Shown: positions 547 to 54,222, counted from the first letter of the stretch. The stretch: DNA of 64,000 nt from Candidatus Bathyarchaeota archaeon (GCA_037386545.1 JARRLY010000006.1:24773-88772), one strand, 5' to 3'. Program-made: numbers and translations. Notes: generated from the sequence alone by a model not told the origin.

Positions 547-957
547 TCAAGTTTTTCTTGAAGTTTCCTGTTTTCTTTTTTTGTACTCTTTATACATGTT
601 TTCTACGTGTTTTCGGGTCACGTATCCTTTGTGGGGTCTAAACCCGCCTTTGAATCCGTGGGGAATGTGCATTAGCTCATGAAGTACTGTGCGTTCTTTG
701 TCTTCTTGGCTTAATTTGTCGTAGCGTTCACTTAAAACTTCAATAACATACGCCGGAGGCATTCCAAGAGCTTGTTGCCAAATTTTTCCGAACCCATGAA
801 TCCGAGCGATAATGCGTCGAGATTTTGAGCCCTCACTGCGAAAACAGTGAATATTTTTTGGAACTACATGAATTAACTCTAGTTGTTGGATGATTTCGTC
901 TGCTAGTTTTTGGACATCTGGTGCTTTTGAGTACTTCAATGGCACTTGTTGTTTCAC
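547..957 (-). CDS. Putative zinc metallopeptidase (HExxH, SprT/COG4900-like)
   Basis: 'VLHELMHIPHGF' HExxH motif in a 136-aa basic protein. The family assignment is from memory only. Confidence 0.5.
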   Translation of the reverse strand: MKQQVPLKYSKAPDVQKLADEIIQQLELIHVVPKNIHCFRSEGSKSRRIIARIHGFGKIWQQALGMPPAYVIEVLSERYDKLSQEDKERTVLHELMHIPHGFKGGFRPHKGYVTRKHVENMYKEYKKRKQETSRKT

Positions 958-1055
958 CTGAACTAGTTGAGCAAGTAGGCTGATGTTTCATATAAACTGT
1001 TTACAAAACTAGTTTTGTTCTATAATGAATTTTCAAAAGCATTAAATTTACAAAA

Positions 1056-1466
1056 TGGTGTACGAGGTAAGGAAGGAAATGGTATCAAGGTCTTGAAGGA
1101 ATGAGGTACTCCCCTACCTAATACTTTATTTTAGCTTTGAAACCTTTTGTTATTTTACATTTGTTAAAGCAGAATCATTAGTGGTGCTCAACTGTTTTGG
1201 GATAATAATTCAATCCTGAAGGTGAAAAAGAAGGCAGGGAAGAAAATGAAAAACGGTAAAAGCGGATTGATTGGATTGAAGGCGCTTCCCTACCCACTAC
1301 AAAAACAATCTTTGATTAAACTGGATATTTTATGGTTATTAATTCAAAATCAATACTTGCAATAAACAAACGAGATCAAAGTAAAAACGTGGACATGAAG
1401 CAAGGACACTTAGTGACATTGAATAAGAGGGAGTCCAAAACGAAATGAGGGCCTACCCTACCTCAG
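1056..1466 (+). repeat. Three spaced, GC-richer, purine-rich units, each ending in CCCTACC (possible tandem sRNA genes)
   Basis: CCCTACC occurs at 1112-1118, 1288-1294 and 1456-1462, a spacing of 176 and 168 nt. Each copy is preceded by TTGAA(G/T) and (A)TGAGG-like purine tracts and separated by AT-rich DNA. Units A and B can fold (AGGTA/TACCT; GGCAGGGAAG/CTTCCCTACC with one mismatch). Confidence 0.4.
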
Positions 1467-1555
1467 TCCACACTTGCATATTGAACTGATTAGTTATTTT
1501 AGCATTGTTAATCAACCCTCAATAATCAAACTAACGAAAACGTTCAACTCGAAAG

Positions 1556-1567
1556 TTTTAATATATA
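1556..1567 (+). promoter_or_regulatory. Candidate TATA box (with upstream purine-rich BRE-like 'cgaaag') for the aIF2-gamma gene
   Basis: 'TTTTAATATATA' is centred about 34 nt upstream of the ATG at 1595, which fits a short-leader archaeal promoter. Confidence 0.35.
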
Positions 1568-1594
1568 GTCTATTTTCTATGTTGCTAAGGATTC

Positions 1595-2875
1595 ATGATT
1601 ACTATGGCATCAACTGTTACACCTAAACGCAAAAAAGCTATGGCGTTACCTAAACAACCAGAAGTTAATATTGGTACTATTGGTCACGTCGACCATGGAA
1701 AAACTACTCTGGTTGAAGCAATAACAGGAGTTTGGGCAGCAAAACACAGCGAAGAACTCCGACGAGGCATCACCATCAAACTAGGTTATGCAGACGCTCC
1801 AATCTTCAAATGCCCAAAATGTGACGAACCAAAATGCTACACTTCAAACACTACTTGTTCTAGTTGTGGCGGCGAAGCAGAATTTGTACGAGCCATCAGT
1901 TTTGTTGACGCCCCCGGACATGAAGCTTTGATGGCAACTATGCTTTCAGGGGCAACTGTCATGGACGGCGCATTATTGATTATCGCTGCTAACGAAAAAT
2001 GTCCCCAACCTCAAACTCGGGAGCACCTAGCCGCTATCGAACTGGCTGGTGTAACTAACATCATTATTGTGCAAAACAAAATCGACATCGTGGACCAAAA
2101 ACGAGCCATGGAAAGCTACAAAGAAATCCAAGACTTCGTTAAAGGCACCGTAGCAGAAGGAAAACCAATCATTCCAGTTTCTGCGCAGCACATGGCAAAT
2201 GTTGATGCACTTTTGCAAGCTATAGAAAAATTCATACCCACACCAAAACGTGACCCAACTAAACCCCCCAGAATGTTTGTTGTTCGATCTTTTGACGTTA
2301 ACAAACCCGGAGATTCAATAGATGAAATCGACGGTGGAGTAATTGGTGGAAGCATTTTCCAAGGGAATTTTAAAGTAGGCGACGAAGTAGAAATCCGTCC
2401 AGGAATAAAAGTCAACAAACAAGGAAGAACATATTACGAACCCATTTTCACTCAGATAACAAGCTTAAATGCCGGCGGGAAACAAGTCCAAGAAGCAAAA
2501 AGCGGAGGACTTGTGGGAATTGGAACATATCTAGACCCATCGATGACCAAAGCGGACGGCCTAACCGGAAACATGGTGGGAAAGCCTAATTTGCTCCCCC
2601 CTACACGGTCTGAAATTGTTGTGGGAACTCACCTGTTGAAGCGGGCCATTGGAACTAAAGAGCTGGTGGAAGTTTCTAACATAATCAAGGATGAAAAACT
2701 GTTATTGGATGTTGGAACCACTATCACTATTGGAGTAGTGATGTCTTCAAAGAAAGACAGCGCTAAGCTTAAGCTCGCTCGACCAATCTGCGCTGAAGAG
2801 GGCGCAAGAGCAGCCATAAGCAGAAAAATCGGCGGTCGTTGGCGTCTTATTGGATATGGAATAATTCAAAGTTAG
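1595..2875 (+). CDS. eif2g: Translation initiation factor 2 subunit gamma (aIF2-gamma)
   Basis: GTPase motifs 'GHVDHGKTT', 'DAPGH' and 'QNKID'. Zinc knuckle 'CPKCDEPKC...CSSCGG'. C-terminal 'GRWRLIGYG'. The length is that of a full aIF2-gamma. Confidence 0.95.
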   Translation: MITMASTVTPKRKKAMALPKQPEVNIGTIGHVDHGKTTLVEAITGVWAAKHSEELRRGITIKLGYADAPIFKCPKCDEPKCYTSNTTCSSCGGEAEFVRAISFVDAPGHEALMATMLSGATVMDGALLIIAANEKCPQPQTREHLAAIELAGVTNIIIVQNKIDIVDQKRAMESYKEIQDFVKGTVAEGKPIIPVSAQHMANVDALLQAIEKFIPTPKRDPTKPPRMFVVRSFDVNKPGDSIDEIDGGVIGGSIFQGNFKVGDEVEIRPGIKVNKQGRTYYEPIFTQITSLNAGGKQVQEAKSGGLVGIGTYLDPSMTKADGLTGNMVGKPNLLPPTRSEIVVGTHLLKRAIGTKELVEVSNIIKDEKLLLDVGTTITIGVVMSSKKDSAKLKLARPICAEEGARAAISRKIGGRWRLIGYGIIQS

Positions 2876-3226: not shown

Positions 3227-4531
3227 ATGTCAGAGCCGGGTGAAGAAACATATTCAACAATGTTCGCTTCCTTGAAACATCCAGCCCGCAGAAAAATTCT
3301 TCGAATGCTTGCAGAAAAACCAAAGAATTTCTCGAGAATCCTAGAAGAATTAGGAATTTCAAGCTCACATCTTACGTATCATCTTGAAAACCTTGGAGAA
3401 CTATTAACTAAACAAGACGACGGACGATACCGCCTTTCCAGCTTCGGGAAAGCAGCCGTATTAACAATGAAAGGGGTTGAAGAGGCCCCTGAAGTTCAAC
3501 CAAAAAGTGTGTTTATGTTACCGAAACAATGGCAAGTAGTTTTTGGTGCTTTAATGATTGTGATTGTTATTTTAGCAAGTTTTTCGTATGTGCAGGTTAC
3601 AGCACTAAATGATTTATCAACTCAACAAGAACAACTACAAAACGACTTTGACCAGCTATCCAATGACCATGAACGTCTACTGTCATGGGGAATATCCACT
3701 GATAGTGTTGTTAACTTTTTACAGGATGTAATCCAGTTAGACATGACCAAATACAGCGCTGAACTAGAACGCCACACGGTTGGTTATCGCGACGATTTAG
3801 GAGGAACAATTGAAGAATATTTAACGTATCGCCTTACATCTTTCGAAACTGAATTGTCTATAGATTTTAGGTTTAGAAACCAAGTGTTATCTCGTTACTA
3901 TCTTACAGTAATTGAGGGACCCCCCATCTATTCTGCCCCTCAATCTAAAAATTTGGTTGATTTTTCCAAAAACATTCTACAAAGATATCAAAATTATGCA
4001 GGTGGTTCATATTTAGATGAAATGAGAAATATGTTAACTCCAATTAACGAAGTAGAAAACATAGTAACAATTGAAGATGACATAAAACTCCTTATTACTA
4101 CAGAAGGAAACGACGTAGAAATGAGGTGGGCAAAAACAACCAAAGGCATAGATTTTCAAGCCAAAGGAGTTGTTCTTACTTTTGATGACGGAATACTTGA
4201 GTCAGTCACTGATGGCTGGTTGTTGTTTAATGTAGGTAACACCGACGTTAATTTTTCAGAGCAAGAAGCAATTCAAATCGCCCTTGAACATGCAAAAGAA
4301 TACTCGTGGACTGTAGACAACATAGAAATAACTGATTTTGTTATTATTGAAGAACCAGAATCCGTTAATTTATGGCCCCACATCAGGGATGAGCCATTAG
4401 ACTTGATTCCTTACTGGTATGTTGTTTTCAGACTGGACAAAGTGTACCCCGGAAACGTTAACAGCATCGGAATAGGCATATGGGCAGACACAGGAAAAAT
4501 CAGCGGATACAAAACGTCAAACATAGGATAA
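3227..4531 (+). CDS. Membrane-anchored ArsR-type wHTH protein with an extracytoplasmic PepSY-like C-terminal region
   Basis: N-terminal wHTH 'LKHPARRKILRML..NFSRILEELGISSSHLTYHLENL'. Single hydrophobic helix 'WQVVFGALMIVIVILASFSYV'. The C-terminus 'EQEAIQIALEHAKE...IGIWADTGKISGY' resembles PepSY. Confidence 0.6.
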   Translation: MSEPGEETYSTMFASLKHPARRKILRMLAEKPKNFSRILEELGISSSHLTYHLENLGELLTKQDDGRYRLSSFGKAAVLTMKGVEEAPEVQPKSVFMLPKQWQVVFGALMIVIVILASFSYVQVTALNDLSTQQEQLQNDFDQLSNDHERLLSWGISTDSVVNFLQDVIQLDMTKYSAELERHTVGYRDDLGGTIEEYLTYRLTSFETELSIDFRFRNQVLSRYYLTVIEGPPIYSAPQSKNLVDFSKNILQRYQNYAGGSYLDEMRNMLTPINEVENIVTIEDDIKLLITTEGNDVEMRWAKTTKGIDFQAKGVVLTFDDGILESVTDGWLLFNVGNTDVNFSEQEAIQIALEHAKEYSWTVDNIEITDFVIIEEPESVNLWPHIRDEPLDLIPYWYVVFRLDKVYPGNVNSIGIGIWADTGKISGYKTSNIG

Positions 4532-23802: not shown

Positions 23803-26541
23803 TCAAAATAATACTGCTATTAGTATACAATTACCTACGTGAACACCTAGATTTTTTACTAATGACTTTTTGAAGTTAAAAAAAGTTGAAGAAATGGGTT
23901 TGCTGAGGCTCAGGCACAGTTTTTGGAAAGGAAAGGAAAAATGAAAAAACCATGCTACTATCACTTGTGATTTTTCATTTTGTGCTTGAGCCTTTTCAGC
24001 CCCATTTCTTGGTTGGTTTCTCCCAAAAAAAGGAGGGAGAAAAGATGTTGGAGTATCAGGAGTATCTGGAGTATCAGGAGTGTCTGGAGTGTCAGGTTCA
24101 GGTTCAATTGGAGTTGCTGGAGTAGGTGCAGGATCAACAGCCACATGTGTTACAGCGGTTGAGCCATAGTATGCTTCAGACCCTTCAAAGGTTGCGAAGA
24201 TTTGGTATGTGCCTTCCAGTTCTGGTTTAAAGCTCAACGACCAGGTTCCATACATGTCGCTAGTTGTTCGGTCAATGTCCATATAGTTGCCGTTAGGATC
24301 AACTGCATATAGGACGATTTCAACACCGTTTACGTTTGGTTGTTCGAATTGTTTGTAAACATAGAGCATCCATTCGCTCATGTCTTCGTCAGCAACTGCA
24401 GGTACGCCATTGGGGAATCTTGTAGTCTTGGAGATGTCTTGTGTTCCTGGAGAAACATCCATCACAGTTCCAGTGACCAATACGCTGCTTCCTAGAGAAA
24501 CAACATTGTCCTGGATTTCAGCTGTTAGTTGGCTTGGACCTTTCCCTACTGCGTAGATGTTGTTGTCGTATGTGTCCATGGTTACCATTATGCTGTCGCC
24601 CATGATTCCACGTCCTCCCCATCGGGTTGAACGGAATAGACCTGGAGCTTTCCAGATTTCTTCTCCGGTTTGTGCATCAAGGCATATGAATGGTGCACCT
24701 CGTGGAATAGGTTCGATAGCAGAGTGTTCCATGTGACCTGAGTATAGTTTACCGTCAACTATCCAGAGGGTGAATTGCCACCAGTTGTTAGCGAACAAAT
24801 ATTCCTGATAGGGGTCGGTTGATTCATAGGTCCAAAGAACATCGCCGTTGTCAAGGTCATAACAGTAGACTATACCGCCTGCACCTGTAGAGTAAAGTTT
24901 TCCATCGTAAATCAGAGGGGGTCGTTCACCAAATTCTGTCCAGCCATAATAGTTCATGTAGTATTCTGATTCTGCTGGTCCCCACATGTATTCACCGTTG
25001 TCAGTGCTGAAAGCATAATATGCTAATTTGTCTTTAACCCAGAAAACTGCAGCGCCGTCTTCTAAACTGATTGCGTTGAACTCGATTTCAACCTGACCGT
25101 CTTCCCATTCAGCTGGGGCAGCCCAAGTTTCACTGAATAAAATGTCGCCTTCATCACCGTCTTCTAAGCTGATAGCCCAAGTGTTGATTTCTGTTCTGCT
25201 GTATTGTAGGCCGAAGATTTTGTCACCGAATGCAGTAGCACGAACTGCGCCACTACCACCTGGAGTTTGTTCAGTATCAACAGTGAATTCAGCTATGTAT
25301 GCACGTTGTGCATCTTCAGTTAATGTACCGTTTACATTCTCTGCTGCGTCCCAAACTCCACGTCTAGATCCATAGAATGAGCCTGCGGGAGCCCAGCTAC
25401 CTGGTGCGGGGCTGTTTGAGGCGAAGTCTGTGATTAGATCGGTTAAGCTCCATATGTATCCTTCACCTGTGTTATAGTTGACATTGACTAGATATAACCA
25501 GCCTTTTTCATCCATAACTCTGGTTCCACTGGGAACGTTCTCAACTGTATATTCTTGATTTCCTGTTAATGGATCAAAAGCAATCCAAGAACCGCCAGCA
25601 GACACATAGAAGTATGGGTAAATGGCGTGATGGTTGTATCCTGCCCACTGCATGTTCTGTGCAAAGGAAATAGTCCGAGCCCTACCGTCAACAATAATTT
25701 CTTTTTCCCACATCACTTCACCGGTGTGTATGTCCACAGCAGTGTATAGTAGGGGATTGTCGTTTGTTCGGTGTAGATAAATTAGTATTCCGTCGATAAT
25801 GATTCGGTTTGTCCATTTTCCTTCATAAGCATCTCCGTGACTGAAACCCCATCCAGGATATGCTTGATCAGCAATACCGCCCATTGTTAGCGCTTTTCTC
25901 CATAGAATGTGGGCAGTTTCGGGTGCATCTGCGTTGCCAGAAAGAACTGTGGGAGCAGTGAAACCTGCTTCTAGCCAACTTCCAGTAACAACACTCCATT
26001 CTCTAAGCTGAGAATCTATTGGACGAGTCCAATATTCTTGTGGAGTAGTGTGACCTGGATAATAGGGAGTAGGTTCTTCCTGGACAATAAGTTCAACTGT
26101 TTCACTGTGGCTTGCTAGCATCACTGTTCCGATTGGGATACGTGGTGCTGTTTTTTCTGCTGTTAGCACTTGTTCAGGGAAGTAAGTTGTAAGATAGTAC
26201 GTGCCTACTTGAGTTGGCAGGTATGTTCTTCCGGTTCCTCCAGTCGAGTCAGTTTTGATGTCTTCGATAGTATCAATAGTACCGTCAGGTTTCTCGATTT
26301 CTATATAGATACCTTCCCAGCCCATCAATGCTGATGACAGCTGCTGGAAGATACCAGTGTGCAATAGAATGTACTGGTTTACTCCTACGGGGTTAGGTAC
26401 TACTCCAAGAAACGGGTAAGTTACTTGAGTTCCAGGCTCTTGTGCTGTGGCAGATGGTATAGCCACAATCAAGGCTGAAATTGTAAGTAGTAGCACTAAA
26501 CTCATAGTGGAAATTTTAGTTTTTGATTCTAGTTTCATCAT
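23803..26541 (-). CDS. Secreted PQQ-like beta-propeller repeat protein with C-terminal Ig-like domain and a (PDT)n linker; 3' end uncertain
   Basis: Signal peptide 'LVLLLTISALIVAIPSATAQE'. Repeated 'D..TGE..W' / 'D.DNGDVLW' propeller motifs. 'PEPDTPDTPDTPDTPDTP' linker. The last ~90 codons are not protein-like. Confidence 0.75.
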   Translation of the reverse strand: MMKLESKTKISTMSLVLLLTISALIVAIPSATAQEPGTQVTYPFLGVVPNPVGVNQYILLHTGIFQQLSSALMGWEGIYIEIEKPDGTIDTIEDIKTDSTGGTGRTYLPTQVGTYYLTTYFPEQVLTAEKTAPRIPIGTVMLASHSETVELIVQEEPTPYYPGHTTPQEYWTRPIDSQLREWSVVTGSWLEAGFTAPTVLSGNADAPETAHILWRKALTMGGIADQAYPGWGFSHGDAYEGKWTNRIIIDGILIYLHRTNDNPLLYTAVDIHTGEVMWEKEIIVDGRARTISFAQNMQWAGYNHHAIYPYFYVSAGGSWIAFDPLTGNQEYTVENVPSGTRVMDEKGWLYLVNVNYNTGEGYIWSLTDLITDFASNSPAPGSWAPAGSFYGSRRGVWDAAENVNGTLTEDAQRAYIAEFTVDTEQTPGGSGAVRATAFGDKIFGLQYSRTEINTWAISLEDGDEGDILFSETWAAPAEWEDGQVEIEFNAISLEDGAAVFWVKDKLAYYAFSTDNGEYMWGPAESEYYMNYYGWTEFGERPPLIYDGKLYSTGAGGIVYCYDLDNGDVLWTYESTDPYQEYLFANNWWQFTLWIVDGKLYSGHMEHSAIEPIPRGAPFICLDAQTGEEIWKAPGLFRSTRWGGRGIMGDSIMVTMDTYDNNIYAVGKGPSQLTAEIQDNVVSLGSSVLVTGTVMDVSPGTQDISKTTRFPNGVPAVADEDMSEWMLYVYKQFEQPNVNGVEIVLYAVDPNGNYMDIDRTTSDMYGTWSLSFKPELEGTYQIFATFEGSEAYYGSTAVTHVAVDPAPTPATPIEPEPDTPDTPDTPDTPDTPTSFLPPFFGRNQPRNGAEKAQAQNEKSQVIVAWFFHFSFPFQKLCLSLSKPISSTFFNFKKSLVKNLGVHVGNCILIAVLF
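24050..24094 (-). repeat. Five tandem 9-bp repeats encoding (P-D-T)n
   Basis: GGAGTATCA/GGAGTATCT/GGAGTATCA/GGAGTGTCT/GGAGTGTCA on the plus strand. Confidence 0.9.
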
Positions 26542-30411: not shown

Positions 30412-30486
30412 GCCTTGGTAGTATAGCTAGGCCTAGTATAGGCGGCTGTCGCCCGCCCGACCCGGGTTCAAATCCCGGCCAAGAAT
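30412..30486 (+). tRNA. tRNA-Asp (anticodon GUC)-like gene with mismatched terminal acceptor pairs; no encoded CCA
   Basis: D arm GTAT-AGCTAGGCCTA-GTAT. Anticodon arm GGCGG-CTGTCGC-CCGCC. T arm CCGGG-TTCAAAT-CCCGG. The acceptor GCCTTGG versus CCAAGAA pairs only 5 of 7 positions (G1/A72 and C2/A71 are mismatched). Confidence 0.6.
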
Positions 30487-34618: not shown

Positions 34619-34686
34619 TCTGATGTGTGTTAATTCCTATCGGACCTGAGAAACTGAGGCATAATTTAGGGTATGTTCTGATTATG

Positions 34687-34848
34687 TTATCCTAGGGTGC
34701 CCTTGATTGCATCAGCTTTCAATCTGAGGTTATCTAGCGTGTCGTCGTAATGAAGGCACGAATCCTCATCTTTTTCAGTGTCTTTTAATGACCAGTGACC
34801 CTTATTCCAATTAAGGCAATTTTCTTTATCACATAATTGATAATCCAT
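34687..34848 (-). CDS. Possible 53-aa Cys-containing small protein (below the ORF-track cutoff)
   Basis: ATG at 34848 is preceded by 'GGGAAAGGGTA'. Translation MDYQLCDKENCLNWNKGHWSLKDTEKDEDSCLHYDD...*. It lies between arsM and the second arsR. Confidence 0.25.
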   Translation of the reverse strand: MDYQLCDKENCLNWNKGHWSLKDTEKDEDSCLHYDDTLDNLRLKADAIKGTLG

Positions 34849-34873
34849 TACCCTTTCCCTTCCAAATTTTTTG

Positions 34874-35197
34874 TTATATGATGTGTTCTAAAATTTTTTC
34901 TGTAAGGGAATTCATAATTTCTGGAGTTAAGCCATCAATAACTTTGAATATTTCAGGGTCCGCTACGGAGTAGAGTCGCCAGTTTCCATCTTTTCTACAT
35001 GTGACCATCCCACAGTTTTTCAGAATCTTCAGGTGCCTAGAAACAACTGGCTGAATCAACTCAACATGAGGAACAATTTTGCATACGCATTTTTCGCCGT
35101 CTCGGAGGAATTCTAGGATTTCTATTCTGACGGGGTCGGATAGTGCTTTGAAGATTTTGGCTTTGAACTTGTTTTGGTCTTTGATTTGCAAGAACAT
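34874..35197 (-). CDS. ArsR family transcriptional regulator (second copy)
   Basis: 'LSDPVRIEILEFLRDGEKCVCKI......VSRHLKILKNCGMV'. ATG at 35197 preferred over the TTG at 35203. Confidence 0.8.
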   Translation of the reverse strand: MFLQIKDQNKFKAKIFKALSDPVRIEILEFLRDGEKCVCKIVPHVELIQPVVSRHLKILKNCGMVTCRKDGNWRLYSVADPEIFKVIDGLTPEIMNSLTEKILEHII

Positions 35198-35218
35198 GAG
35201 CAAACAATGAGAAAAGTG

Positions 35219-35232
35219 AATATTTAAATATT
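35219..35232. promoter_or_regulatory. Perfect 14-bp palindrome AATATTTAAATATT between the second arsR and the ferredoxin gene
   Basis: The sequence is its own reverse complement. It lies 22 nt upstream of the arsR2 ATG. It could be an operator, a TATA element, or both. Confidence 0.3.
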
Positions 35233-35293
35233 GTTATATACTGCCGTATTTTCTCAGCCAATTGTTGAAACATAACTTTGAAGGTAATTAGCA

Positions 35294-35569
35294 ATGTCTG
35301 AAAAAACATTTGAAGGGATTCCACGAAATAAAATTTCTTGGGACCCAATAATCGATTATGAAAAATGTATTGCCTGTGGAAAATGTGTTGAATTCTGTCA
35401 TGTTGGGGCATTCAAGTTTGAGGAAAAAGATGGAGAAAAAAGACCTGTAGTGAACCCAAATAAATGCATTGTATTCTGTAGAGGTTGCGAAGATTTCTGT
35501 CCTGTCGGTGCAATCACGCATCCATCTGAAGAAGAAACTCAAAAAATCATAGAGAAACTAAAAAAATAG
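35294..35569 (+). CDS. 4Fe-4S dicluster ferredoxin-like protein
   Basis: 'CIACGKCVEFC' and 'CIVFCRGCEDFCP'. Confidence 0.7.
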   Translation: MSEKTFEGIPRNKISWDPIIDYEKCIACGKCVEFCHVGAFKFEEKDGEKRPVVNPNKCIVFCRGCEDFCPVGAITHPSEEETQKIIEKLKK

Positions 35570-35578
35570 TTCCCTTTT

Positions 35579-37424: not shown

Positions 37425-37925
37425 ATGGAAACAAAATTTGACAATTTGCCCTTACTAAAGTACCTCGAAGACCACGGAGTAACCCTCAAAGACTTACTTG
37501 ACACTGCCTTGGAAATGCACATTCCCCATCCCGGAATAGAAACCCGCGACCAAGCTGCCGAGTTATTCAAGGCAGGATTTTACGAAGCCCTAACCGACGT
37601 TAATGTTGCAGTTTTGGAAGTTGCCTGTTTCCGAGCTGAAGAGGATGGACAAAACGGTTTGATTCCATTGCTTCCAGCAGAGCAGTTCAAAGGTCGCCCC
37701 GGACTTATTGTTGATGAATACCTAGGAATGACCATTGCAAATTACATTGCTGGTGGTCGAGCAATCTTTGAGTTCATCCGTTACGATCAAGCTAAACCCG
37801 GAATATTAAGAAAACTTGGACCCATAGCAAACGATGCCATTGGTGGCTTGATTTCGGGTGTGTCGAGTCGGGTTTATTCTGGAGCTTTAGAAAAACAGAA
37901 AATGTTAGAGTCAGAAAAAAAGTAA
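37425..37925 (+). CDS. PgpA/CobZ-like phosphatase-domain protein
   Basis: 'FEFIRYDQAKPGILRKL....NDAIGGLISGV' resembles the PgpA C-terminal motif. It is divergent from the CobT-like gene. Confidence 0.45.
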   Translation: METKFDNLPLLKYLEDHGVTLKDLLDTALEMHIPHPGIETRDQAAELFKAGFYEALTDVNVAVLEVACFRAEEDGQNGLIPLLPAEQFKGRPGLIVDEYLGMTIANYIAGGRAIFEFIRYDQAKPGILRKLGPIANDAIGGLISGVSSRVYSGALEKQKMLESEKK

Positions 37926-38344
37926 CCCCAACTTGGGATTTAGAAAAAAGGGGACATCGAAAGTTTTAGTCTTCGATGTTAATTATGATGTTTGTGATTG
38001 CGATTTGTCCCGCTTGGTTTGTTAGCTTGTACGCTGCGGTTATGTAGATTGTAACTTCTTGTTTGTTTATTGGTTGTGCTTGCAGAGCATGAATTGTTAT
38101 GGTTTCGCCAGCACTCATGTAGCCGCTTGTCATCAGTTCTTCGCGAGTTAATACCTCATTGTTTACTGTCTAATCTGCTGGCAAGTGCACTCGGATTTTG
38201 TCGTTTCTGGTGTTAAGAATTAGTTTGTTGTCTGAAATGGCAACAACTATGCCTTCCAAGAAAGAATACACAATACCAAGTCGAAAACAAAGATTCAAAA
38301 AAAGAAAAACGACGTTAACAACGCAAGCTGTACGTTGTTTAGTC

Positions 38345-39864: not shown

Positions 39865-40627
39865 CTAGTCTTCAAGTTTTGTAAGCTTTATTGTTCCGCC
39901 TTTTTCTTTAATCATTTCAGTAAGTTGAGAAAGGGCCTTGTTAACACGGTTTTTTGCAGCTTCAGAATCCTTGGCAGTAGTAGAAACATGAAACTCAATA
40001 ACCGGAGTGGTTTCTGCCCCTCTTGGATGAGATTTTATGTAAACGTAAGGATTGTCTTTCATTAAAACATCCACAGATGGTGCCATTTCTGACTCCATAA
40101 CATTTACATATGCCTTTCATTTCAGAAGGCACTCCCGGAAGAGCAAATATGGTAACCTCTTTGTGCTTTATCATTACCCCAGGGGCGGTTCCAACCGGAT
40201 TAGCAACTGGTTCAGAGCACTCAGGAATTTTAGCCATCTTCACTCGATGAGACGTCAACTTGATTTCTTCCACTTTGGTTTTTTGGGCGTAGATACGATA
40301 TTTTTCTGTAACCATCTTCAAGGCTTGATCGTCAACTATGGTTTGGCAACCTAAAGCTTGGGCGAGCCCTTCTAAGGTCATGTCGTCAAAAGTTGGACCC
40401 AGGCCACCTGTGGTTAAAACAAAAATGGGTTTGCGTTGGATTGCTTCTTTTATTGCCATTGATATGTCAGGGAGGTTGTCCCCTACAACAGTAACACGTT
40501 TAACGGTTAAGCCTAAAGCGGTGACACGCTTCGTCAACCATTGGGCATTGGTGTTTAGGGTTTTACCTATGAGTAGTTCGTTTCCAATGCAGATTATTTC
40601 TACAAACGGATTCGTTATGTCCCCAAC
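39865..40627 (-). pseudogene. CinA-like / MoCF-binding domain gene lacking a canonical start and split by a frameshift
   Basis: The conserved N-terminus 'VEIICIGNELLIGKTLNTNAQW' is in frame with an upstream TAG, and no ATG/GTG/TTG precedes it. The frame switches near 40110-40117 ('PGVPSEMK' in one frame, 'MESEMAPS...VYIKSHP' in another). Confidence 0.7.
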
Positions 40628-40750
40628 CTAAGAAACTGGTTAATTAAACTACTAAAAACAAAGAAATAACTGCTTTGATTAGAGATCAAAAAAGAAAAAG
40701 AAAAGCATGTAGACTAACTAATCTTTCAAAACATTAAGTTTTTTCAAAAT

Positions 40751-40957
40751 TTATTTTTTCTTGCTGAGGTACCACTTTAGGTAATCCTTTCTCTGTTGTT
40801 TGTGTTGCTCCTCGGCAGTTTCGTAACTGGGTCGGTTTTTTTCGCGCAACTCGTAAAGCTCTTGAGGAGTAAGAGAAAGGCCACAACTCTTGCAAACATA
40901 ACGTTTTGTACGGGAAACGTAATGCAATTCGCCACCACATTCAGGGCAATATCTCAT
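40751..40957 (-). CDS. Small zinc-ribbon protein
   Basis: 'CPECGG....CKSCG' followed by a basic tail. Confidence 0.55.
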   Translation of the reverse strand: MRYCPECGGELHYVSRTKRYVCKSCGLSLTPQELYELREKNRPSYETAEEQHKQQRKDYLKWYLSKKK

Positions 40958-41098
40958 AGTTTTCGCCTTTTCAGTTCATGTTCATACGTTACTATATAAA
41001 GGTAGATGCTGGAAAAAGGATTTCTGTTTGAATTCTTTCATAAAAGGGAAAAAATATACAAGAAAAAAGGAGTATAATATTTGTGAGGTAAACAAAGT

Positions 41099-41353
41099 AT
41101 GGCAGTAGCAGGAGGAACAACTGCAGCGGTTATTGCAGCCCAACACACTAGCTCATATCGGGTTAAATTCAAAAGAAAACAGTTTCTAGAACTAGTAGAA
41201 ACCGCAAAACCAAAAATAATCTACCAAACTGGAAGAATGCATTTTTTCGCTTTTGATGGATTTGTAATGTACACATTCGAATGCAAAGATTCAGACTTTA
41301 AACAAAAGGTTTTACACGCAATCGAGTTCTCCAACCAAGCATGGAACGAGTGA
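41099..41353 (+). CDS. Hypothetical small protein
   Basis: ORF track only. Confidence 0.3.
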   Translation: MAVAGGTTAAVIAAQHTSSYRVKFKRKQFLELVETAKPKIIYQTGRMHFFAFDGFVMYTFECKDSDFKQKVLHAIEFSNQAWNE

Positions 41354-41446
41354 TCAACCGCTTAAATAACTGAGGAAAAACAACTGTCGTTTCAAAGTTT
41401 TCACATTTATCCTAAAGCACCATTCGATTTCGATTTAAATTGCAGG

Positions 41447-53088: not shown

Positions 53089-54222
53089 CTAGGCAATGGC
53101 CTCCACAGTTTTTTTGGTTTGTAGTCTGCCGATTACGGGTTCTCCACCTCGGGGGCTCCAAACGGTGTCTAATTCGGGTGAAATTAGCCGAATGGCTGCT
53201 TCTTCTGAGGACAAAAACAAAACATCACCTTTTGTTGCAGCAGTAAGGGGACGAAGCTTGATTCTGTCAGTTAGTCCAATCATTTCGCCCTCATGAGCAA
53301 CAATAATTGTAAAGGGTCCGTTCATCAACAAACCGCCATATGTTTGGCGTAGAGCGCTCATGGCTTGTTGGGTTTGGGGTTTCATTGTTTTTATTTCAGA
53401 CCACAAAGGGGGTGCAAGTATTTTGGTAACTGCTTTTATTGGCAGTTTTTGGCGCCGCATTAGAAGGTCAAAGGCATATGCTAGGACTTCGGTGTCTGTT
53501 TGCATGGTGCATTTGTATCCGAACATTTCCAAGTAACGTTTGTTGATTCCATACGAAGAAATTTCGCCGTTATGGACAACAGTCCAGTCTAGCATACTAA
53601 ATGGATGGGCTCCTCCCCACCAGCCTTGGGTGTTTGTTGGGAAACGTCCGTGAACTGTCCACAGGTATCCTTTGTAATCTTCTAAACAGAAGTATTCCCC
53701 CACGTCTTCAGGGAAACCTACTCCTTTGAAAACTCCCATATTTTTTCCGCTAGAAAACACGAAAGCCTTACCGGTTTCGCTGTTTATGCGAGTGACAATT
53801 TTCATGACGTAATCGTCTGGACTCATGCCTTGAAGTTTAGCAGCCTTAGGCTGAACAAAGTACCTCCACATTAGGGGGGGATCGGTGACTTTGGCTTCTT
53901 GGGTAGGCATTTCTTCGTCATTGATTATATCAAAGACTTCGTTTAACAGGCGATCAGTTTCTAGTTTGGCGTCAGTGCTAAGGTACATTATCTGGAAAGC
54001 GTAATCGTCTTTGTAGTCGGGATAGATTCCATATGCTGAAAAGCCGCCGCCTAAACCGTTTCCACGATCATGCATGTTGGCAATTGCTCGCATGGGGTCT
54101 TTAGCGGAGAATCTTTGGCCTTTGAGGTTCATCATCCCGAATATGGAACAGGCATCAAAGACTTTCTCGTCGCCGTGAGGGTTGTTAACTTTACTGAGGT
54201 TTTTCATGTTAATGCACCACAA
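53089..54222 (-). CDS. Glutamate synthase glutamine amidotransferase subunit (class II/Ntn, GltB domain 1)
   Basis: 'DACSIFG' nucleophile region, 'HDRGNGLGGGF' and 'HGRFPTNT'. An alternative start at 54207 is possible. Confidence 0.85.
   Translation of the reverse strand: MWCINMKNLSKVNNPHGDEKVFDACSIFGMMNLKGQRFSAKDPMRAIANMHDRGNGLGGGFSAYGIYPDYKDDYAFQIMYLSTDAKLETDRLLNEVFDIINDEEMPTQEAKVTDPPLMWRYFVQPKAAKLQGMSPDDYVMKIVTRINSETGKAFVFSSGKNMGVFKGVGFPEDVGEYFCLEDYKGYLWTVHGRFPTNTQGWWGGAHPFSMLDWTVVHNGEISSYGINKRYLEMFGYKCTMQTDTEVLAYAFDLLMRRQKLPIKAVTKILAPPLWSEIKTMKPQTQQAMSALRQTYGGLLMNGPFTIIVAHEGEMIGLTDRIKLRPLTAATKGDVLFLSSEEAAIRLISPELDTVWSPRGGEPVIGRLQTKKTVEAIA

Follow-up and report, generated by a model that had tools for sequence, protein, structure and literature searches.

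The spacer upstream of the aIF2-gamma gene of a Candidatus Bathyarchaeota archaeon probably harbors three tandem, paralogous genes for stem-loop small RNAs, located on the minus strand, each with its own promoter and specific to this lineage; we assign this reading a probability of roughly 0.6. Together with their homologs in related genomes, they probably constitute a new, narrowly distributed family of archaeal small RNAs. As a small RNA candidate the locus is comparatively well supported, combining G.U pairs confined to one strand, compensatory changes in the stem, a promoter-like element at constant spacing and conservation well beyond that of neutral sites. In anoxic sediments, Bathyarchaeia count among the most abundant archaea, and to our knowledge no small RNA has been described for them; a literature search for Bathyarchaeum small RNAs found no paper. 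The window referred to below is the whole analysed stretch of 64,000 nucleotides (GCA_037386545.1 JARRLY010000006.1:24773-88772).

The repeat array and its genomic setting

The spacer (958-1594) comprises 637 nt and is flanked by divergently oriented genes (Table 1); the neighbors of the array in the window are S6e, a 94-aa ORF, the peptidase gene, aIF2-gamma, and an ArsR-like gene. An earlier inspection of the DNA, here called the sequence-only reading, had described the spacer as unusually long. This holds against the median gap of 73 nt, but the spacer is not the longest: a crude gene call based on ORFs ranks it sixth by size among 59 gaps. It is exceeded by four gaps of 900-1050 nt (53162-54208, 34619-35578, 37435-38344, and 40538-41446), which hold no ORF of at least 120 aa in that call and in which Rfam at gathering thresholds detected nothing.

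The heptamer CCCTACC occurs at 1112-1118, 1288-1294, and 1456-1462, always on the plus strand and at spacings of 176 and 168 nt. The array thus holds three of the four copies in the 64-kb window, the fourth and last lying at 25680. Shuffling of the whole window yielded a mean of 2.4 copies on both strands, compared with the three observed on one strand within 351 nt, a triplet that far exceeds chance. The islands containing the heptamers have GC contents of 0.45, 0.43, and 0.48, versus 0.22-0.30 in the stretches separating them; they are purine-skewed on the plus strand, and TTGAA(G/T) and (A)ATGAGG tracts are present in the array. In all these respects, i.e. position, spacing, composition, and accompanying tracts, the sequence-only reading described the units correctly. 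A repeat search resolved a tandem unit of ~172 nt, degenerate except for two conserved blocks; the units are paralogous, and all of them are direct repeats. Since the duplicated unit includes its flanks, tandem duplication rather than transposition is suggested. The spacer is also present, with no more than one difference, in two metagenome contigs from JGI (L062 and L066).

Table 1. Features of the aIF2-gamma spacer, its flanking genes, and the orthologous units in B. tardum
Feature	Position	Strand	Sequence or remark
Conserved block 1	1104, 1280, 1448		AGGnnCTnCCCTACC; repeat search
Conserved block 2	1151, 1326, 1495	+	TATTTTA..TTGTTAA..AATCAnTA; 46-47 nt downstream of block 1; repeat family D1
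Unit A hairpin RNA (candidate)	1060-1124	-	stem pairs at 15 of 16 positions, 3 of them G.U
Unit A 5' arm	1124-1109	-	GUAUUAGGUAGGGGAG
Unit A loop	1108-1076	-	UACCUCAUUCCUUCAAGACCUUGAUACCAUUUC; 33 nt
Unit A 3' arm	1075-1060	-	CUUCCUUACCUCGUAC
Unit A TATA-to-stem stretch	1125-1150	-	CTAAAA at 1134-1129; putative start-site region
Unit A promoter-like block	1151-1180	-	TAATGATT-N5-TTAACAA-N3-TAAAATA; repeat family D1 and nine-unit alignment
A-type 3' flank, conserved	1018-1059	-	RNA sense GUAAAUUUAAUGCUUUUGAAAAUUCAUUAUAGAAC; in window, L001, L016
Unit B hairpin RNA (candidate)	1227-1300	-	stem pairs at 14 of 16 positions
Unit B 5' arm	1300-1285	-	GUAGUGGGUAGGGAAG
Unit B loop		-	42 nt
Unit B 3' arm	1242-1227	-	
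Unit B promoter-like block	1326-1355	-	repeat family and nine-unit alignment
Unit C hairpin RNA (candidate)	1389-1471	-	most diverged copy
Unit C 5' arm	1471-1456	-	GUGGACUGAGGUAGGG
Unit C 3' arm	1405-1389	-	
Unit C promoter-like block	1495-1524	-	back to back with aIF2-gamma promoter
Putative metallopeptidase gene	547-957	-	PF18894, Pfam E 1.9e-25; co-directional with units
aIF2-gamma promoter	~1549-1566	+	GAAAGTTTTAATATATAG
aIF2-gamma gene	1595-2875	+	divergent from units
B. tardum hairpin units (L001)	3617-3689, 3798-3869		L001 3614-3872 corresponds to CP122380 ~1,419,570-1,419,830

Known classes of elements do not account for the array. Rfam 15 at gathering thresholds found three tRNAs in the whole window, all of them elsewhere, and a permissive search of 900-1650 on both strands (E up to 10) returned only MALAT1 (25 bits, threshold 70) and mir-305 (20 bits, threshold 66), which are chance-level matches. 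Neither ARAGORN nor the Rfam model RF00005 detected a tRNA in 958-1594. The earlier statement that the units belong to no recognizable RNA family is therefore borne out by the Rfam scan. Elsewhere in the window, tRNA-Asp (GTC) at 30412-30486 scores 38 bits against the Rfam tRNA model, compared with 61-63 bits for the other two tRNAs.

Archaeal C/D and H/ACA guide RNAs resemble the units in size, in forming GC-richer islands in an AT-rich genome, and in terminal pairing. They differ in that no unit has a C (RUGAUGA) or D (CUGA) box at the required positions on either strand, and in that the 16-bp stem is uninterrupted, with no pseudouridylation pocket or K-turn and with a loop lacking a conserved upper stem; an ACA after the stem is confined to A-type units, L016, and L087. 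A protein-coding or decayed gene was likewise rejected: frame reading confirmed the earlier statement that no ORF is common to the units, and orthologous units do not agree in their stops. Of eight units, two (unit B and L087) keep the plus-strand LPYP frame open, which is shut after four codons in the B. tardum ortholog, and small minus-strand ORFs starting at GGTAGG have no conserved start. A mobile element of the MITE type would be expected to have many dispersed copies with target-site duplications, and the scans of the window, related loci, metagenomes, and viruses recovered copies at one locus only. Archaeal origins carry inverted ORB elements around an AT-rich unwinding element and usually lie beside orc1/cdc6; the units are direct, not inverted, repeats, and no orc1/cdc6 is found among their neighbors. 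Duplication of the peptidase promoter and gene start was also considered, and nhmmer found no similarity.

Strand, stem, and promoter-like block

The strand on which the units are best read is indicated mainly by the type of mismatch in the stem. An A.C mismatch on one strand corresponds to a G.U wobble on the other. Across six units from three genomes and 16 stem positions (96 cells), the minus strand gives 74 Watson-Crick pairs, 17 G.U pairs, and 5 mismatches, while the plus strand gives the same 74 Watson-Crick pairs, no G.U pair, and 22 mismatches, nearly all of them A.C. The plus-strand arms read GTAYGAGGYARGGAAG (5') and CTYCCYTRCCnnAYAC (3') over the 16 positions, with many A.C mismatches. 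With purines throughout one arm and pyrimidines throughout the other, G.T could have arisen by transition as readily as A.C; the only type seen, in at least six separate columns, is the one that a minus-strand RNA tolerates. The evidence thus points to units that are best read on the minus strand, where CCCTACC would be the complement of GGUAGGG in the 5' arm of a 16-bp stem and not, as the sequence-only reading had proposed, the 3' tail of an RNA. The hairpins noted there do exist; they are part of a longer stem of 16 positions that pairs far better on the opposite strand, so that the proposal of three paralogous small RNA genes appears right in kind, though wrong in strand and anatomy. As a more general lesson, a purine-rich hairpin with A.C mismatches deserves re-reading on the opposite strand.

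Folding and covariance modeling agree with this assignment. On the minus strand, the six units fold into a clean 16-bp stem with z-scores of -2.63, -3.91, -2.32, -4.53, -2.34, and -5.11 (units A, B, and C: -2.63, -2.32, and -2.34; minimum free energy of unit A -19.4 kcal/mol); the plus-strand values range from -0.02 to -3.15, the latter belonging to L016 and the remaining five units lying between -0.02 and -1.57. A covariance model built on the minus strand scores 53-86 bits there versus 16-28 bits on the plus strand. In the window, units A, B, and C reach 77.3, 65.5, and 53.1 bits (77, 65, and 53) versus a best plus-strand match of 17 bits (16.9 in unit A). In a seven-sequence alignment, 92% of the cells pair, versus 42-59% with the partners slid, and three pairs changed on both sides (U-A/C-G, A-U/G-C, and U-A/G-C). 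One G-C pair of unit B is an A-U pair in its B. tardum ortholog, and unit C retains 16 bp plus one bulge through different outer pairs (GUGGAC/GUCCAC). The diverged unit of L086 preserves 12 bp, with one G-C replaced by A-U, and has a loop unrelated to the others; in general, loop length ranges from 30 to 50 nt over a stem that is maintained. Shuffling provides a weak control for covariation, as 36-39 of 500 shuffles reach the observed values, and the distinct sequences number just seven or eight, all from close relatives. The argument is therefore carried mainly by the strand asymmetry and the controls.

In minus-strand orientation, the second conserved block becomes TAWTGATT-N5-TTAACAA-N3-TAAAATAWC, a promoter-like sequence of the BRE/TATA type. 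The first T of its TATA element precedes the first stem nucleotide by 30-35 nt in all nine units (33 nt in unit A), CTAAA is found 6-11 nt before the stem in most of them, and the distance from block to stem is comparable with the TATA-to-gene distances of the tRNA genes in the window. The element would thereby be placed as an archaeal promoter requires for a start a few nucleotides before the stem. Its TAWTGATT-N5-TTAACAA part is longer than a plain BRE/TATA and partly palindromic. No plus-strand element was found at a constant distance in all units; TTCTATAAnGAA occurs on that strand ~41 nt upstream of A-type hairpins only (window, L001, and L016). The TATA-like box that had been proposed ~25 nt upstream on the plus strand is not conserved among units, and the T-tracts once seen as downstream flanks belong to the conserved block, i.e. 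to the BRE/TATA-like promoter of the minus strand. The other option raised at that time, a repeated protein-binding module, may apply to this promoter-like block. The block suggests that the units may be independent transcription units, each with its own promoter.

A T4-T5 run follows the stem in the three window units and is absent in L001, L016, L087, and L086, whose transcripts may run on towards the peptidase gene. The loops of B-type units contain UUUUU on the minus strand, which could terminate the archaeal RNA polymerase, perhaps partially, before the 3' arm is made.

Distribution and conservation in Bathyarchaeum

Homologs are confined to a narrow, patchy set of Bathyarchaeum genomes with one to three copies each. 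Candidatus Bathyarchaeum tardum M17C-01 (L001), with an aIF2-gamma 91% identical in amino acids to that of the window, has two units, in which the motif reads CCTTACCCCAC. A single unit is present in L016 (aIF2-gamma 78% identical) and its 97% relative L093, as well as in L087 (89%), and a single diverged one in L086 (91%). The contig L085 (95%) begins within a unit, and L094, cut too close to the gene, begins with a D1-like end of the second block. The exact heptamer is found upstream of aIF2-gamma in none of 36 related loci, an absence that is misleading as a sign of non-conservation because the B. tardum ortholog reads CCTTACC. Among seven further aIF2-gamma relatives (L088-L094), the unit is absent in L088-L090 (84-85% identity to the window) and in L091 and L092 of the L016 lineage. 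Searches with nhmmer and the covariance model recovered no further copies, neither in the window nor across ~0.3 Mb of related loci; a metagenome-wide pattern scan gave two contigs, both from the organism of the window, and six unrelated matches, and a viral scan gave 18 matches, all unrelated.

Where present, the last unit always abuts the aIF2-gamma promoter, which is also true of L086 with no peptidase gene nearby. Nine relatives within Bathyarchaeum have just 94-114 nt between the metallopeptidase and aIF2-gamma genes, with no unit and one shared promoter region. The units are therefore an insertion specific to this lineage, which grew by tandem duplication: L087, L016, and L093 have a single copy, B. 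tardum has two, and the window has three.

The conservation of the units exceeds that of the sites taken as neutral. Identity between window and B. tardum is 84% over 154 nt for unit A and 71% over 156 nt for unit B, and unit A is 70% identical to L016. The corresponding values at fourfold-degenerate sites of aIF2-gamma are 59% (window versus B. tardum) and 44% (window versus L016). By parts, the comparison of window and B. tardum gives 88% for both the unit A hairpin and the unit A TATA-to-stem stretch, 83% for the second block of unit A, and 80% for that of unit B; the A-type 3' flank shares 74% with L001. The aIF2-gamma promoter is 98% conserved. L016 and L093 agree at 62 of 62 hairpin positions, compared with an identity of 79-80% in the flanks and 91% in the second block. 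Both the hairpin and the second block are under purifying selection. A comparison with related genomes and a covariance model, both suggested as checks by the sequence-only reading, yielded compensatory changes, conservation well above the neutral level, and, within the window and the ~0.3 Mb of related loci, no copies beyond the aIF2-gamma locus.

Several further features of these loci were recorded. Among the Bathyarchaeum relatives compared (L002-L016, L039, L054, and L057), anything from 94 to 3851 nt separates the PF18894 metallopeptidase gene from aIF2-gamma, and this gap looks like an insertion hot spot. In B. tardum (L001 3325-3558, plus strand), a 77-aa ORF absent from the window lies between the peptidase gene and unit A; its Pfam matches, DUF7225 and DUF7669, are sub-threshold only. 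The Logan contig L086 has a 1-kb aIF2-gamma spacer, with a PAS/histidine kinase gene replacing the peptidase gene upstream. At 2148-2190 this spacer contains another hairpin, perfect and unrelated to the unit, GAAATAGGGG-N23-CCCCTATTTC, with a T-rich tract behind it. In L007, a 414-nt spacer with no unit holds a different hairpin, CCCCCAA-N44-TTGGGGG, at ~3690-3760, perhaps a further small structured element occupying this position. The A-type flank reads TTCTATAAnGAAnTTyCAGAA... on the plus strand over ~35 nt (window 1018-1059, L001 3577-3620, L016 3668-3709), and includes a motif resembling TATA on either strand, as well as a short segment that might form a stem, yUUC-N6-GAAr. Among close relatives, the 5' regions of aIF2-gamma fall into two unrelated types, as compared for window 1543-1610 with L003, L009, L054, and others: a short one, CTCTAGGAGATTATCATGTC, with a protein of 419 aa, and a second one, GAAAGTTTTAATATA...TAAGGAATCATGATTACTATGG, with a protein of 423-432 aa. 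Units are found with the second type only.

Possible modes of action and competing explanations

According to the proposed model, the locus would produce three small RNAs of ~70-90 nt from the minus strand, divergent from aIF2-gamma and co-directional with the metallopeptidase gene. In each unit, the promoter-like block would direct a start ~26 nt downstream of the TATA element, with the stem following a few nucleotides later; in B. tardum, the RNA 5' ends are predicted 3-10 nt before GUGUGGGG. The 16-bp, G.U-rich stem would close a mostly unstructured, C/U-rich loop of 30-50 nt, presenting and stabilizing it as a single strand that acts in trans. Conservation is seen in the 5' half of the loop (CCUYCAWUCC..UCAA), which reads UACCUCAUUCCUUCAA in A-type units, CRCCUUCAAUCCARUCAA in B-type units, and UUCAUUCCUU in L016 and L087. 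By analogy with known systems, a trans-acting loop that pairs with RNA or binds protein is the most likely mode of action: the loop might pair with purine-rich mRNA segments, in the manner of archaeal intergenic small RNAs, or bind a protein recognizing U/C-rich RNA, the latter being as plausible as the former. Target tests on the window, which covered 64 kb of a ~2-Mb genome, found no enrichment of complements (12-mer and 11-mer) of the loop motifs and no preference of the loops for translation start regions over gene interiors (p 0.13-0.58, window genes). The loops also paired with the cognate aIF2-gamma start region no better than shuffled loops.

Several known RNAs share parts of this architecture. 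Bacterial small RNAs of the RsaE/RoxS type use C/U-rich loops to pair with Shine-Dalgarno regions; like them, the units carry pyrimidine-rich unpaired loops on stable stems, and the A-type loop contains ACCUC and UUCCUU, resembling the 16S rRNA 3' end. They come from another domain of life and have no homology to the units, and an anti-Shine-Dalgarno role of the A-type loop would be suggested by this resemblance only, the comparison of start-region pairing lending it no support. Y RNAs and bacterial Y-like RNAs consist of a long stem formed by the RNA ends and a large pyrimidine-rich loop and often occur as several tandem paralogs, all of which recurs here. The RNA proposed here would, however, be shorter, matches no Rfam Y RNA, and lacks the bulged-helix Ro site; no Ro/Rsr gene was seen in the neighborhood of the array. 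In Methanosarcina mazei, the loops of sRNA154 and sRNA41 mask ribosome binding sites (PMC5867862). Like the candidate RNAs proposed here, intergenic small RNAs of this type are small, lineage-restricted stem-loops with their own TATA-type promoters and functional single-stranded loops (PMC5867862). The predicted element differs from them in having no sequence or Rfam relation, in loops that showed no preference for translation start regions in the tests on the window and on aIF2-gamma, and in a tandem array fixed beside aIF2-gamma, which is particular to it.

Other explanations of the array were weighed against independent small RNA genes. It is supposed in one of them that the minus-strand hairpins are repeated modules of a long leader running into the metallopeptidase gene, serving attenuation, stability, or protein binding. 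The units are indeed co-directional with and directly upstream of the peptidase gene in the window, L001, L016, and L087, no clear T-run follows the stem in the last three, and the A-type 3' flank is conserved up to the peptidase promoter region. However, the peptidase gene has its own conserved TATA element (~990-997 in the window), kept in all relatives, even where the gap is 95-115 nt and holds no unit; L086 has a unit and no peptidase gene nearby, in L001 the 77-aa ORF on the other strand separates unit A from the peptidase gene, every unit has its own promoter-like block, and the constant neighbor is the aIF2-gamma promoter, so that a leader is considered unlikely. That constant neighbor would suit an element acting at the DNA level, i.e. 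a repeated site for a transcription factor or other DNA-binding protein controlling the aIF2-gamma promoter, with the inverted repeat as protein site or cruciform; the extended, partly palindromic TAWTGATT-N5-TTAACAA sequence and the negative RNA target tests (start regions and cognate aIF2-gamma) are in line with it. A DNA site should accept A.C and G.T mismatches equally, whereas 17 versus 0 were observed, all giving G.U on one strand, and arms of 16 bp around a variable loop of 30-50 nt, with the stem kept despite this variation, are atypical of a protein site. We therefore regard a purely DNA-level function as distinctly unlikely.

Small RNA genes on the plus strand, with an upstream TATA-like box, a CCCTACC end, and T-tract terminators, appear very unlikely. 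They could draw on T3-T4 runs after every hairpin, on TTCTATAAnGAA ~41 nt upstream of the A-type hairpins of the window, L001, and L016, and on the fold of the L016 unit (z -3.15), but these runs are the conserved TATA block of the minus strand, B- and C-type units and L087 have no promoter element at a constant distance, z-scores in the other five units stay between -0.02 and -1.57, and 22 of 96 stem cells would be mismatched with no G.U, against 17 G.U and 5 mismatches on the minus strand. Even less credit is given to a selfish or neutral repeat with no function, be it MITE-like with 16-bp terminal inverted repeats or a decaying duplication or gene. Its patchy distribution with copy numbers of 1-3, the insertion hot spot between peptidase and aIF2-gamma genes (94 to 3851 nt), and the divergence of unit C would fit such an origin. 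Against it stand the lack of dispersed copies in the 64-kb window, ~0.3 Mb of related loci, and the metagenome and viral scans, the co-duplication of the flanks, which indicates tandem duplication and not transposition, the conservation well above fourfold sites, the hairpin shared without change by L016 and L093, whose flanks differ, the compensatory nature of the stem changes, and the lack of a conserved ORF.

Within the preferred reading of minus-strand small RNA genes, a link to aIF2-gamma might be reflected in the divergent pairing with its promoter, fixed in every genome with a unit. The hairpin RNA might be functionally tied to aIF2-gamma, i.e. co-expressed with it and binding or titrating it to tune initiation, which we hold to be a long shot. 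Binding of 5'-triphosphate RNA ends has been reported for crenarchaeal aIF2-gamma, and the RNA could serve as a decoy for this activity or mimic a feature of the initiator tRNA. We know of no archaeal regulator in which a dedicated small RNA binds or titrates aIF2-gamma.

The candidate genes are directly testable, since Ca. Bathyarchaeum tardum, with two copies, is in culture. The constant association with aIF2-gamma is the sole feature that could lift the element above a routine small RNA candidate. If this link is not functional, the units would represent one more lineage-specific small RNA family evolving by tandem duplication; if it is functional, a small RNA would be joined to the core translation initiation machinery of these archaea.
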